DNA of 64,000 nt from Escherichia phage 4MG: sequence record NC_022968.1. The stretch is one strand, 5' to 3'. Below the pieces are notes generated by a model. That model was given only the letters and a program-made list of their open reading frames with translations, was not told where the DNA came from and did no database searches. The translations under genes and the position numbers were made by a program. Within the stretch, counting starts at the first letter, position 1; every line of letters begins with the position of its first letter. Shown one piece after another: positions 11,687 through 56,922 of the stretch.

Positions 11687-12319
11687 ATGGCATATTACAC
11701 TGGGGTAGGATCTCGCGAAACACCCCCAGAGGTTATCAGCGTCATGGAAGACGCTGCTTTCCGATTAGCAAGACTTGGATTCACACTGCGAAGTGGAAAA
11801 GCCGGGGGTGCTGATGAGGCATTTCAGGTAGGAATGCAAAAATATTACGAATCTCTTGACAATGGAAAACAAGAAGAGTATCGTACACGCTTGGCAGAGA
11901 TTTACATACCGTGGGACGGGTTTGCAGCAGATAATGACAAGCTCTGGGATTATTGGGATTATCCTTTGAGTTATGTCGATTACCTAATGCCGGAGCAAAA
12001 AGTGGTCAGGGACTCACTGGTCGAGGAAATTCATCCTAATTTCGAGGCACTTAAGAAGAAGCGTGGTGCTTTTGCACTTCACTCTCGCAACGTGCATCAG
12101 GTTTTGGGTGCAAATATTCTTGAGCCGCGCCCCTCTGCGTTTTGCCTGTACTATGCATCCGAGGATAAGCATGGTAATCCGAAAGGTGGTACGGCTACTG
12201 CGGTAAATCTTGCCAAAAAATATGGCGTGAGAACGCTTAATCTAAACACTCCGGAGCGCTTGGCCTTACTTGAGCAGTTCCTGACCAATCTTGAGAGGAA
12301 AAGAGGTGTCCAGGTTTAG
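11687..12319 (+). CDS. Rossmann-like nucleotide-binding protein (SLOG/DprA-like), function unknown
   Basis: N-terminal YTGVGSRETP ... SGKAGGADEAF pattern; trimmed to ATG after CAGGAGG. Confidence 0.4.
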   Translation: MAYYTGVGSRETPPEVISVMEDAAFRLARLGFTLRSGKAGGADEAFQVGMQKYYESLDNGKQEEYRTRLAEIYIPWDGFAADNDKLWDYWDYPLSYVDYLMPEQKVVRDSLVEEIHPNFEALKKKRGAFALHSRNVHQVLGANILEPRPSAFCLYYASEDKHGNPKGGTATAVNLAKKYGVRTLNLNTPERLALLEQFLTNLERKRGVQV

Positions 12320-12614
12320 AGATAAGCTGAATCAGTCCTATTGTCTCGTGAAATATGACAAAAAGGGCTGGGTTCTGGCTAAAAAGACAGGAAAACGGAT
12401 TTATGTCACTGAAAGTAATGGTGAAATCCGCTATATCTGCACCACAGATGATACTGACCAGTTCAAACATCTTACCGAGTCCTTGGAATATGAGTCAAGG
12501 AAGACCCTTGTAGTGGGTGATGTGGTGAGATTGGACAATTTTGGGCCATATCATGTGGTTGATTCCGGTTACCGTGGGGATGACGGTGAAGTGAAATATC
12601 TGATAGCTCGATAG
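12291..12614 (+). CDS. hypothetical protein
   Basis: ORF. Confidence 0.45.
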   Translation: MRGKEVSRFRDKLNQSYCLVKYDKKGWVLAKKTGKRIYVTESNGEIRYICTTDDTDQFKHLTESLEYESRKTLVVGDVVRLDNFGPYHVVDSGYRGDDGEVKYLIAR

Positions 12615-12621
12615 GAGGAGT

Positions 12622-13104
12622 ATGACAGTTAGTATTCATGGGGTTATCTCCCATCGAAAACTGATGGAGTTGAAGAATTGTGGGGTTGTTTCTCCGGGGC
12701 TGTTTGATGCTGAAGCGGAAAGCCTCTTCAATTTTTATCGTAAGGTTGTGGCTCAGTCTCTGTATGAGATGAACGATGGGTTCTTTACCCGAATGATTTA
12801 TAACACTGCCGCAGCAGAACGCGATGCACGGTGGATGTTCCCGGATCGTCGTGATTTGCTGAATCACCTGATCTACCTGGATGGTAAATCCAAGTATGTG
12901 ACTGTCGAAAAGGAAGAACTTGACAAGTTCACAATGCTGCACACCGCAGCCGTAGCCTCTGAAAGGGCGAGAAAAGTTCTCGTGACATTCAAGTACAGCG
13001 ACCAGGTACTTGTCGATGACGAAACAGGGTATTACATCGACTGGCTGATGAAGAATGCATACATTCTGAAAGGCTATATTGCAAACGCTCGTGAGGAGGA
13101 TTAA
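12622..13104 (+). CDS. hypothetical protein
   Basis: ORF after TAGGAGGAGT. Confidence 0.5.
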   Translation: MTVSIHGVISHRKLMELKNCGVVSPGLFDAEAESLFNFYRKVVAQSLYEMNDGFFTRMIYNTAAAERDARWMFPDRRDLLNHLIYLDGKSKYVTVEKEELDKFTMLHTAAVASERARKVLVTFKYSDQVLVDDETGYYIDWLMKNAYILKGYIANAREED

Positions 13105-13105
13105 T

Positions 13106-14029
13106 ATGGAACAGAACAAGAACTTTTTCGGAATGCCGGGATTCAGTGGCAACGTGTACAGCTACCCTGTCCACTCTCACGATCATGTTATCTACATTGA
13201 TGACCTGTCATGGTTAGAAGATCATCAGGACCGCTTGCAGGTAATTCGCCAGGCATCTCCTGATGATACCATTCGTGTGGTAATTAACAGTCCTGGTGGG
13301 GTTGTTTCTATCGCAATGGCTTATGTAAGTGCTATTCGTGAAAGCCAGGCGTCGATTGTTACCCACGCAGAAGGTAACGTGTGTTCTGCTGGTACTGTTC
13401 TGTGGCTTGCCTGTAAGGATCGCACGGTCTCTCCCCTGACTATGTTCATGTTCCACAACTACCAGGGCGGTACGTATGGTGACGGTGCAAACATGTACAG
13501 CCAGATTGCCTTTGAAAAGCACTACTTTGATCGCCTGATGGATACCTTCTACACCGGGGTTCTGACAGAGACTGAAATTGCTACGATCAAAGGTGGTGGT
13601 CAGGTGTGGATGGATGAAGTTGAGATCCTGAAGCGCACCCCAGCGGTTCTGCTCGATGAACGAAACATTAAGCGTATGCAAGAGGGGCAGCGTCCGATCA
13701 TCTCCGGTGAGAAGCCGAAAGAAAAGACCGTGGTCGAGAATGTTGATCTGAATAACCTCCCTGAAGACGGCGTGCCAGAAAGCATTTTCCTGAGAATTGA
13801 AGTTGAGGGTGAGACCTTTAAGTTCGACGTATCGACTCTCCAGGCAAAAGACTTTGATCCTTTCAACGTTGCTGAACTGCAAACCATCTACTCTCAGATT
13901 GGTGCAATCGCCTCAGGGTCAGAGGAAGCCTTGATTGTGAATACTCGAAACCGTCAGGACCTGATCGATGCGATTCTCGCCGCTTCTGAAGAGATTATGG
14001 CTGATGTGCTGGAGAAAATGGGGAAATAA
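13106..14029 (+). CDS. ClpP-like serine protease
   Basis: VINSPGG and GNVCSAGT motifs resemble the ClpP fold; trimmed to ATG after GTGAGGAGG. Confidence 0.55.
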   Translation: MEQNKNFFGMPGFSGNVYSYPVHSHDHVIYIDDLSWLEDHQDRLQVIRQASPDDTIRVVINSPGGVVSIAMAYVSAIRESQASIVTHAEGNVCSAGTVLWLACKDRTVSPLTMFMFHNYQGGTYGDGANMYSQIAFEKHYFDRLMDTFYTGVLTETEIATIKGGGQVWMDEVEILKRTPAVLLDERNIKRMQEGQRPIISGEKPKEKTVVENVDLNNLPEDGVPESIFLRIEVEGETFKFDVSTLQAKDFDPFNVAELQTIYSQIGAIASGSEEALIVNTRNRQDLIDAILAASEEIMADVLEKMGK

Positions 14030-14709
14030 TGTCTGCGCCTTTGAAGAAGAAGGGGGAACGTAGGGATTATGACGTGTATGAGACACCAGAATGGGCTGTC
14101 ACGGCCCTTTTGGATGTTATCCCTATCAACCCACACTGGAAATATTTAGAGCCGTGTAGAGCGTCTGGGAGATTCTACAACCACATGCCAATAGGTTCAG
14201 CCTGGGGTGAAATCCGTCATGGTGTGGATTATCTCAACACAGAGTACAAGCATGTGGATTGTATCATCACAAACCCGCCTTATTCTTTGGCTCAGGAGTT
14301 CGTTACAAAGGCCCTTGAAGATGCGGATGTGGTAATTATGCTCCTCAGGTTAGGATTCCTTGAAAGCCAGATCCGGAACAAGTGGTGGCAGGACAATAAA
14401 CCGTCCAGCCTGATGGTCTTATCACAAAGGCCTTCATTCACCGAAGACGGTAAGACTGATGGTTCTGGGTACGCTTACTTTGTGTGGGATAAGAAGAACC
14501 GCCTTAACCTTGAACCATTCTATTTCTTGGAGGGTCAAAGCGATGAGTGTCGCAAACAAGATGCGAGAGATCGCAAACAACGCAGAAAAGCAAACGCCAG
14601 CAGAAATGAAGGACATCTTCGAACAGATAGTGAGCGGGATAGCTCAGTGTGCGAGGAAGGGGATGTACGGGATGGGACTCTCAATGGACTTCCCGGTGGA
14701 GATGAGTGA
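14029..14709 (+). CDS. N6-adenine DNA methyltransferase (NPPY class)
   Basis: CIITNPPYSL catalytic motif; C-terminal ~55 codons are low-complexity and overlap the next ORF. Confidence 0.55.
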   Translation: MSAPLKKKGERRDYDVYETPEWAVTALLDVIPINPHWKYLEPCRASGRFYNHMPIGSAWGEIRHGVDYLNTEYKHVDCIITNPPYSLAQEFVTKALEDADVVIMLLRLGFLESQIRNKWWQDNKPSSLMVLSQRPSFTEDGKTDGSGYAYFVWDKKNRLNLEPFYFLEGQSDECRKQDARDRKQRRKANASRNEGHLRTDSERDSSVCEEGDVRDGTLNGLPGGDE

Positions 14710-14821: not shown

Positions 14822-14826
14822 ATTAA

Positions 14827-14854
14827 CCCGCTTCGGCGGGTTTTTTCGTTTTTG
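14827..14854 (+). terminator. rho-independent terminator
   Basis: CCCGCTTCGGCGGG hairpin followed by TTTTTTCGTTTTTG. Confidence 0.8.
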
Positions 14855-14857
14855 TGC

Positions 14858-14886
14858 TTGACATCAATTTTACCGAGGATTATTAT
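14858..14886 (+). promoter_or_regulatory. sigma70-type promoter
   Basis: TTGACA - 17 nt - TATTAT, about 20 nt upstream of the AAGGAG/ATG of the next gene. Confidence 0.7.
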
Positions 14887-55500: not shown

Positions 55501-55713
55501 AGCCTTTAGATTTTAACAGGGACGTTCCTCGTCATCGACACCGCCTTAGTCGTCGTGCATGGTATGTGGTTTTTGGTGCTGGTAGGGTGCATCAAACAGA
55601 TAAGTTATTGCCGAAAGACCTTGCAGAGAGAATCCATACCCTATACAATGATATAGACCCCATTGATATTGAGGGGGTAATTGAAAGTTATCTTGAACAA
55701 AGGAGACAAACTA

Positions 55714-56922
55714 ATGTCGAGTCGTAACATTTTTGATGAGAACCGTATCACACTTCGGGATGTTCCTGATCTGATGAAGTTCTGTCAGCGTCGTGGACGC
55801 GCTTTGATGATGTTTGGTGGTGCTGGTCTTGGCAAGAGCCAGGCAATGAAGCAGGTAGCCAATATGATGTTTGGTGAGCGTGACGACAACCTGATCGACT
55901 TCCGTCTTGCGGATAAAGAACCGTCTGACGTTGTTGGGGTGCAGATCCCCGTTACCGACAACAATGGTATTACACGTACTGTGTACGCTATCCCAAGCTT
56001 CTGGCCTGATGATCCGAACTGGCAGGGCATTGTGTTCCTGGATGAGTTGCTCCATGCGGAGCCATATCTCCAGAAAGTTGCCTATCAGATCATGCTTGAT
56101 CATAAGATCGGTACATATAAGTTCCCGGTAGGCGCGGTGTTTGCAGGTGCAGGTAACCGCCCTGGTGATGGTACTGCGGTAAGTATGCTGGAAGCTCCAC
56201 TGGCTAACCGTATGATCCTCGTTGAACTGGATTACGACACAACTGTTTGGTTACAGGACTTCGCTATGCACAACGATGTTCACCCATCCGTTGTTGGTTT
56301 TGTGAGCGCAAACCCAAGTAAGATCGAAAACTATGAAGAGATGCTGGAGATTAACTCCCCTTCATACGCCACTCCGCGTACTTGGGTCACCGCAAGTGAT
56401 ATTCTGTACGATTATGACGCAGGCCTGCTCTCTGCTCGTCTGGCACTGGCATCGTTGCAGGGTAGTATCGGTAAGCCTCTGGCTAACGAACTGTGGGAAT
56501 ACCATACCCGTATCTCCAAAATGGTCTCTATCGAGGATGTGATGAGCGGTAAACTTACTAAACATACCGGGGCTGACTCATCCGACATCCTGTGGACACT
56601 GGGTTCTCAAGGTTCTATCTGGCTTCGTAAGGCTATCCAGAACAAGGAGTACACTGATGATGAGGTTATCGCGTTTGCTGCTAACTTCCTGAAGTATATG
56701 TATGATAACTTCGGGCAGGATGACACGGCATCCAACCGTGACTTCGTAAGTTCGGTGTTTATGTCCTTCATCCAGGAGAACTCCTTCGGGAAGGCGATCC
56801 TGATGTCGGGTAACCGTGAGCGTTTACCTGCTAAACTACTCCAGAAATACCCGGTGGTTATGGAGATCATCACAGAATACCGTAAGAACTTCTCTGACGG
56901 TGTAGATGCAATCGTGAACTAA
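55714..56922 (+). CDS. MoxR/CobS-like AAA+ ATPase
   Basis: Walker A GGAGLGKSQ, Walker B IVFLDELLHAEP; trimmed to ATG after AAAGGAGACAAACTA. Confidence 0.65.
   Translation: MSSRNIFDENRITLRDVPDLMKFCQRRGRALMMFGGAGLGKSQAMKQVANMMFGERDDNLIDFRLADKEPSDVVGVQIPVTDNNGITRTVYAIPSFWPDDPNWQGIVFLDELLHAEPYLQKVAYQIMLDHKIGTYKFPVGAVFAGAGNRPGDGTAVSMLEAPLANRMILVELDYDTTVWLQDFAMHNDVHPSVVGFVSANPSKIENYEEMLEINSPSYATPRTWVTASDILYDYDAGLLSARLALASLQGSIGKPLANELWEYHTRISKMVSIEDVMSGKLTKHTGADSSDILWTLGSQGSIWLRKAIQNKEYTDDEVIAFAANFLKYMYDNFGQDDTASNRDFVSSVFMSFIQENSFGKAILMSGNRERLPAKLLQKYPVVMEIITEYRKNFSDGVDAIVN

Follow-up and report, generated by a model that had tools for sequence, protein, structure and literature searches.

A ClpP-fold protein encoded among the DNA-metabolism genes of Escherichia phage 4MG is probably an accessory protease and not the capsid-maturation protease

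The gene analysed here lies on the forward strand at positions 13106 to 14029 of a 64,000-nucleotide stretch of DNA of Escherichia phage 4MG (Vequintavirinae, Seunavirus; sequence record NC_022968.1), referred to below as the window. It encodes a ClpP-like protein annotated as an ATP-dependent protease. We conclude that capsid maturation is very probably not the role of this protein, since 4MG encodes a separate protease of the type found beside the portal and capsid genes. The ClpP-like protein is likely to be an accessory, non-virion, cytoplasmic ClpP-fold serine protease. The gene and the parts of its product (positions in the window, aa for amino acids, nt for nucleotides, pLDDT for the predicted local distance difference test) are as follows.

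13093-13100, forward strand: Shine-Dalgarno sequence GAGGAGGA, 5 nt 5' of the ATG at 13106
13106-14029, forward strand: ClpP-like protease gene, 307 aa plus stop; protein identical to YP_008857360
13106-13162, forward strand: N-terminal segment, aa 1-19, Gly/Phe-rich (NFFGMPGFSG), disordered in the model with pLDDT 40-45, variable in length among homologues
13163-13681, forward strand: predicted ClpP-fold domain, aa 20-192, including a long "handle" helix at aa 127-149 (AlphaFold2 model; Foldseek target template modelling (TM) score 0.70-0.76)
13385-13387, forward strand: codon of Ser94, predicted nucleophile, matching Ser97 of E. coli ClpP, invariant in both alignments
13454-13456, forward strand: codon of His117, predicted general base, equivalent to ClpP His122, invariant in the alignments
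13601-13603, forward strand: codon of Gln166, aligned at the position of ClpP Asp171
13682-13777, forward strand: flexible linker, aa 193-224, with pLDDT below 50 at aa 202-207
13778-14026, forward strand: acidic C-terminal domain, aa 225-307 (83 aa), a beta-hairpin followed by a helix-loop-helix, with weak SAP/Rho_N likeness

A six-frame list of open reading frames (ORFs) contains a single long frame at this place, 13079-14029 on the forward strand, which includes an upstream TTG codon at 13079. The ATG at 13106 is favoured over this TTG as the start, because GAGGAGGA is present at 13093-13100 and because homologues begin with MEQNKNFFG. The stop codon, TAA, occupies positions 14027-14029, and the interval given in the original prediction, which had been made from the sequence without database searches, coincides exactly with the gene and its stop. 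The two motifs on which that prediction of a ClpP-fold serine protease was founded, INSPGG and GNVCSAGT, correspond to aa 60-65 (nt 13283-13300) and aa 90-97 (nt 13373-13396), respectively. The protein is 100% identical to the "ATP-dependent protease" of phage 4MG, YP_008857360. Both the gene and the family to which it belongs have entries in GenBank annotations and in PHROGs, and the finding as originally stated is therefore already known; the protein is labelled as a ClpP or ATP-dependent protease subunit in PVP-SE1, GAP31, 4MG, rV5-like phages, and ICP1, and some of these labels are over ten years old. A literature search revealed no functional study of the family (phrog_5410), and the paper describing rV5 does not mention a protease.

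The assignment to the ClpP fold was borne out by the motifs and by Pfam, PHROG, Protein Data Bank (PDB), and Foldseek searches. The phrog_5410 profile matched over its full length (E 8.7e-144; aa 1-306 aligned to positions 1-322 of the 323 in the profile), while Pfam CLP_protease (PF00574) matched at E 5.7e-12 (46.3 bits versus a cut-off of 20.2) and covered aa 43-133 only. A sequence search of the PDB returned 72 distinct ClpP sequences at E <= 0.01. In an AlphaFold2 model of the monomer, which had a mean pLDDT of 83.5 and values of mostly 81-96 across the protease domain, the first ~190 residues adopt the ClpP fold; the best 50 Foldseek matches in the PDB were all ClpP, with target TM scores of 0.58-0.76 and, for most, a root-mean-square deviation (rmsd) of 2.5-3.5 A over ~170 columns. 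Models that define narrower families behaved differently. The NCBIfam model for ClpP proper, TIGR00493, scored 27.8 bits versus a cut-off of 308.6, and the other NCBIfam ClpP models were likewise far under theirs. The best NCBIfam model was that of a ClpP-related head-maturation protease, NF045542, also below its cut-off (55.2 versus 120 bits), and a PHROG family of head-maturation proteases, phrog_1684, matched at E 1.8e-21. The search against profile families that had been proposed with the original prediction thus places the protein within CLP_protease and phrog_5410, and below the cut-offs of NF045542 and TIGR00493; the protein fails the tested defining features of both canonical ClpP and the curated head-maturation family. 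The N-terminal segment, NKNFFGMPGFSG, has a loosely conserved N-x-F-G pattern and sits where ClpP has its gating loops.

Conservation of the active site was assessed in two alignments, one of 29 homologues with 26-92% identity, and another of 27 phage-family sequences and E. coli ClpP, in which more distant relatives were included. Besides Ser94 and His117, the oxyanion residue Gly65 is invariant in the aligned homologues. A Ser-His-Asp triad is not present, since Gln166 takes the place of Asp; among the 27 phage-family sequences of the second alignment, the Asp171 column contains D in 13, E in 10, and Q in four. A Ser-His-(Gln/Glu/Asp) active site is plausible, judging by this pattern of conservation. 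The hydrophobic pocket by which ClpP receives the IGF/IGL loops of its partners ClpX and ClpA also appears, by alignment, to be missing: residues Y60, Y62, F82, I90, M92, F112, and L114 of ClpP are matched by R57, V59, E79, H87, E89, T107, and S109, and Arg and Glu dominate several of these columns across the phage family. The ClpP positions R170-D171 align to Gly165-Gln166. Since the triad is without Asp and no pocket for docking an unfoldase is seen, the label "ATP-dependent protease", which finds no support in the sequence, is probably misleading.

The C-terminal domain was modelled confidently as a block (pLDDT mostly 82-91), and its pattern TL..DF..F...EL..I......R..LI..I is kept even in relatives with 30-36% identity. 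A DNA-binding function of the SAP or Rho_N type was considered for it and rejected, because the sequence signals were sub-threshold and the domain is strongly acidic. Pfam SAP, HeH, and Rho_N gave no match in the 4MG protein; in homologues, Rho_N was sub-threshold in two (18.1 and 14.0 bits versus a cut-off of 24.9), and SAP scored 13.1 bits. In the PDB, a C-terminal profile matched the SAP domain of rice SIZ1 (2rno, E 0.0075) and Thermotoga Rho (3l0o, E 0.075), and an hhalign comparison with E. coli Rho was not significant (probability 0.2%). The net charge of the domain is -9 here and averages -6 over 23 homologues (the whole protein has a net charge of -20), which is not that of a basic nucleic-acid-binding surface. 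Since the domain is consistently acidic, we read it as a protein-binding rather than a DNA-binding module.

The gene lies in the arm of the genome devoted to nucleotide metabolism and replication. It is flanked on its 5' side by genes for ribonucleotide reductase, PhoH, and a DprA-like protein, and on its 3' side by genes for a DNA methyltransferase and a CCA-adding enzyme; a GH19 lysozyme gene is also near. The features immediately around it are as follows.

12622-13104, forward strand: gene for a 160-aa all-helical protein (phrog_7224), co-conserved, with its stop 1 nt before the protease ATG
14029-14709, forward strand: DNA methyltransferase gene; its ATG and the stop codon of the protease overlap (TAATG)
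14825-14852, forward strand: terminator-like hairpin AACCCGC-TTCG-GCGGGTT (14825-14842) followed by a T-run (consensus scan only)
14858-14886, forward strand: near-consensus sigma-70 promoter, TTGACA-17-TATTAT, 11/12 matches (consensus scan only)

The protease gene is translationally coupled to the 160-aa gene upstream and to the methyltransferase gene downstream. The strong hairpin at 14825-14842, followed by the sigma-70 promoter, suggests that the transcription unit ends after the methyltransferase gene. In the window, the DprA-like gene (phrog_768), a 102-aa gene (phrog_5456), the 160-aa gene, the ClpP-like gene, and the methyltransferase gene follow one another at 11687-14709 on the forward strand, and this five-gene order is common to GAP31, Certrevirus CR9, and Septuagintavirus A7_1, that is, to at least three genera. 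The adjacency of protease and methyltransferase is kept in the inspected Seunavirus, Certrevirus, Septuagintavirus, and Vequintavirus genomes; in Vequintavirus ECP2309 the methyltransferase is kept, and the 160-aa gene is not detectable. A distant metagenomic phage locus (L005) keeps the block order, with an unannotated 167-aa ORF 3' of the protease. The block may be a functional module, or may be a core region that was simply inherited vertically. The phrog_7224 protein carries an invariant N-terminal motif, H-x-x-L-M-E-L-K-N-x-G. PADLOC defence models gave no matches to the protease or to its three upstream neighbours.

The occurrence of the family was surveyed in protein and nucleotide collections. 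Among 1.84 billion representative proteins, a profile search found 472 with E <= 1e-30 and 3202 with E <= 1e-10. By tblastn, 825 phage records matched (members of phrog_5410 and of a sister clade, phrog_1827), 214 of them over at least 80% of the query; in this ranking, matches annotated as head maturation protease appeared only at the weak end, with 29% query coverage. The sister family phrog_1827 (E 1e-43) includes Gp211 of Vibrio phage ICP1, gp040 of the T5-like Pectobacterium phage My1, and gp173 of the Pseudomonas phage PAK_P1 (Pakpunavirus). ICP1 Gp211 is 34% identical to the 4MG protein over 173 aa. In ICP1 (MW794185, locus L008, 1-6942) the genes gp203-gp211 include, in order, nrdA, nrdB, lysozyme, PhoH, gp209, gp210, and gp211. 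As an observation apart, Gp211 has a long acidic C-terminal extension. The possibility that ICP1 gp209 is a homologue of the DprA-like gene was rejected, no homology being detectable, and the deep synteny is thus limited to NrdAB, lysozyme, PhoH, and the protease. The gene gp211 falls within a range described as nucleotide-metabolism genes, and the late capsid cluster of ICP1, gp122-126, has its own predicted protease, gp125 (PMC7567579). My1 gp040 adjoins genes for a dNMP kinase and for a holin and an endolysin, while PAK_P1 gp173 is surrounded by small genes without known function and has dCMP deaminase and DNA ligase genes downstream. Every inspected genomic context of the phrog_5410/phrog_1827 clade is non-structural.

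The context of the whole genome was taken from Cronobacter phage GAP31 (Vequintavirinae, Seunavirus), and from cluster and contig look-ups. In the phage collection searched, which does not include the 4MG record, the closest DNA matches of the window, EC152, GAP31, and LNA4, are ~89% identical to it, and the window is collinear, in reverse, with GAP31 positions 67118 to 1996. In GAP31, the head module is located at 93-99 kb and the ClpP-like gene at 53 kb, ~40 kb apart. The order of head genes is terminase large subunit, portal (Portal_Mu), GAP31_198, the scaffold-like gp199, decoration, and major capsid (Phage_cap_E). GAP31_198, between the portal and capsid genes, is a Peptidase_S78_2 or XkdF-like protein (58.6 bits versus a cut-off of 24). 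A 4MG protein, YP_008857288, belongs to the same 90%-identity cluster, and its accession number differs by 72 from that of the ClpP-like protein. Contig L011 (141,776 bp), which carries a near-identical member of this cluster, has the genes TerL, Portal_Mu, S78_2, phiTE_211, decoration, and Phage_cap_E in this order. When the GAP31 terminase, portal, XkdF-like, gp199, decoration, and capsid proteins were compared with the window by tblastn, no match was found.

Virion proteomes of two relatives contain a protease of this kind. In Certrevirus CB7, mass spectrometry (MS) of virions identified 26 proteins, including a "prohead core protein protease", CB7_5, encoded beside the portal; by the account given there, CB7_55 is the single one encoded outside the morphogenesis region, and the paper contains no mention of "Clp" (PMC7344957). 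In Septuagintavirus W70, 28 virion proteins were identified by MS; they include a "capsid maturation protease", W70_136 (phrog_1530), and no Clp-like protein or phrog_5410 member (PMC11370258). W70_136 and GAP31_198 belong to the same PHROG.

These results bear on the remaining claims of the original prediction. Its description of a non-structural context, with nucleotide-metabolism and methyltransferase genes, agrees with the neighbouring genes. It held that a search of the full genome should reveal whether there is a separate prohead protease, and 4MG does encode one, the XkdF-like S78_2 protease YP_008857288. It also held that capsid and portal genes immediately outside the window would make the protein an ordinary prohead protease; synteny with GAP31 instead puts the head module no less than 26 kb outside the window, past its start, and capsid and portal genes are thus not near it. 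Its premise, that the ClpP fold in phages usually belongs to the prohead protease, is not fully right, since the inspected contexts of phrog_5410 and phrog_1827 were all non-structural. A displaced morphogenetic protease, which it offered as one possible role, is disfavoured by the S78_2 protease encoded by 4MG, found in the portal-capsid slot of contig L011 and in related virions.

We consider it likely, as stated at the outset, that the ClpP-like protein is an accessory, non-virion, cytoplasmic serine protease. It would be made in the middle phase of infection together with the products of DNA-metabolism genes, and would assemble into ClpP-like rings. It would act without ClpX or ClpA, as is suggested by the replacement of the IGF/IGL docking pocket with polar and charged residues. 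Its substrates or partners would be found through the acidic C-terminal domain on its flexible linker, possibly with the help of the 160-aa partner; candidate substrates are host proteins, a target that the original prediction had also put forward, or phage early proteins that are removed in mid-infection.

Several points weigh against this reading. Given Gln as the third triad residue, the activity of the enzyme could be low or conditional, and the pocket analysis is a sequence alignment and not a model of the complex. Prohead proteases often leave the capsid, and absence from virion proteomes is for this reason weak evidence; its weight is further limited because carriage of the ClpP-like gene was established for CR9 and A7_1, the congeners of CB7 and W70. 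The XkdF-like S78_2 protein is itself only a putative protease. Lastly, given that the best curated-family similarity is to head-maturation proteases (NF045542 and phrog_1684), descent from a prohead protease is possible.

The alternative that survives best, which we nevertheless hold to be unlikely, is that of a displaced morphogenetic protease, which would process head proteins (scaffold, portal, or others) or the tape measure protein in trans. After its own PHROGs, the closest curated families of the protein are indeed ClpP-related head-maturation proteases, but the score for NF045542 is less than half of the 120-bit cut-off, and the canonical portal-scaffold slot is held by a dedicated S78_2 protease, which was found in CB7 and W70 virions while the ClpP-like protein was absent from both proteomes. 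Like prohead proteases, the protein has no unfoldase-docking pocket, and its C-terminal extension resembles protease-scaffold fusions; its gene, however, is co-transcribed and translationally coupled with DNA-metabolism genes, and the ICP1 homologue is encoded in a nucleotide-metabolism range and not with the late capsid genes. Cleavage of the tape measure protein has been inferred from cryo-electron microscopy of phiTE, where the responsible protease was not named (PMC11972413). Separately, we note that phiTE belongs to the Vequintavirinae, and that its tape measure protein could conceivably be cleaved by one of the two phage proteases.

Somewhat less probable again is a true ATP-dependent subunit, which would replace host ClpP or mix with it and, driven by host ClpX or ClpA, would redirect these unfoldases to substrates chosen by the phage. 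The public annotation uses this name, and the ClpP fold, with its handle helix and Gly-rich strand, is in place; at the same time, polar or charged residues fill seven positions of the docking pocket, the N-terminal axial-loop region is predicted to be disordered and cannot be aligned to ClpP, and the protein is far below every NCBIfam ClpP cut-off. A third triad residue other than Asp recalls Listeria ClpP1, but the positions of R170-D171, which form part of the ring interface in ClpP, are Gly165-Gln166. No ClpX-, ClpA-, or ClpC-like gene is present in the GAP31 annotation. The least probable alternative, a ClpP-like scaffold or decoy of little or no catalytic activity, which would act by binding instead of cleavage and would, for example, sequester a host factor through the C-terminal domain, would fit the loss of the triad Asp to Gln166 and an acidity (-20 for the protein, -9 for the domain) suited to a mimic or binder, but conflicts with the invariance of Ser94, His117, and Gly65 down to 19-26% identity, which is not expected of a pseudo-enzyme, and with the Glu or Asp found at the third position in close and distant relatives.

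A phage-encoded AAA+ partner was also considered and rejected, since nothing ClpX-, ClpA-, or ClpC-like is annotated in GAP31 and a candidate in the window, a 413-aa ORF at 55681-56922 on the forward strand, has no Pfam support. This ORF is syntenic to the GAP31 "MoxR ATPase" gene and gave no Pfam match at E <= 0.001; either the GAP31 annotation arose from weak similarity, or the start codon or frame used here is wrong.

What the accessory protease would do in the infected cell can be proposed only tentatively, and we attach low confidence to the following scheme: a self-contained, ATP-independent compartmental protease, perhaps acting with the 160-aa partner, clears host proteins (of the nucleoid, of defence, or of stress response) or spent phage early proteins in mid-infection, these being recruited through the C-terminal domain. 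If this is true, the protein would form, with the phrog_1827 members of ICP1, T5-like phages, and Pakpunavirus, a widespread class of phage proteases that serve host takeover or counter-defence and descend from the ClpP/prohead-protease fold. Phages of Klebsiella, Salmonella, and E. coli O157 that are relevant to therapy are among the 825 matching records, as are Pakpunavirus and the model phage ICP1. While the discovery of the gene is itself not news, the function of a non-canonical ClpP-like protease could reveal a new step of host takeover.

Comparison with known systems sets the protein apart from each of them. It shares with E. coli ClpP (MEROPS S14; 1tyf/6wr2) the alpha/beta fold and handle helix, with a target TM score of ~0.7 and an rmsd of 2.5-3 A over ~170 residues, and keeps the nucleophilic Ser, the His, and the INSPGG oxyanion loop of bacterial ClpP. 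Unlike bacterial ClpP, to which it is ~20% identical, it has Gln166 in place of Asp171, does not conserve the IGF/IGL docking pocket, has an N-terminal region that cannot be aligned to the gating loops, and carries an extra linker and the 83-aa acidic C-terminal domain. ClpP1 of Listeria monocytogenes has a Ser-His-Asn triad and is not known to be active outside a mixed ClpP1/P2 complex. The replacement of the triad Asp by an uncharged amide is common to ClpP1 and the phage protein, but ClpP1 is a genuine paralogue of ClpP and has ClpP2 and ClpX as partners, whereas the phage protein has no evident partner of this kind. Phage G provides a precedent, since it encodes a Clp-type protease besides a separate head-maturation protease (PMC12484599). 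In phage G, however, ClpX is encoded next to ClpP, whereas nothing ClpX-like is annotated in GAP31 and the docking pocket appears to be absent from the 4MG protein.

The head-maturation proteases (NF045542; phrog_1684, phrog_94, and phrog_133; compare lambda gpC, S49) are likewise phage-encoded and are the best curated family outside the protein's own PHROGs. Like the 4MG protein as we read it, they are not known to depend on an ATPase partner, and C-terminal extensions are frequent among them. The 4MG ClpP-like gene differs from theirs in lying away from the portal, scaffold, and capsid genes, where the S78_2 protease fills the slot. The phrog_1827 proteins differ in that most are ~180-200 aa long, consist of the protease domain only, and have Asp at the third triad position, and their genes are without the 160-aa partner and the methyltransferase neighbour. 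They resemble the 4MG protein in their non-structural location, and ICP1 shares with 4MG both the order NrdAB-lysozyme-PhoH-protease and, in Gp211, a C-terminal extension.
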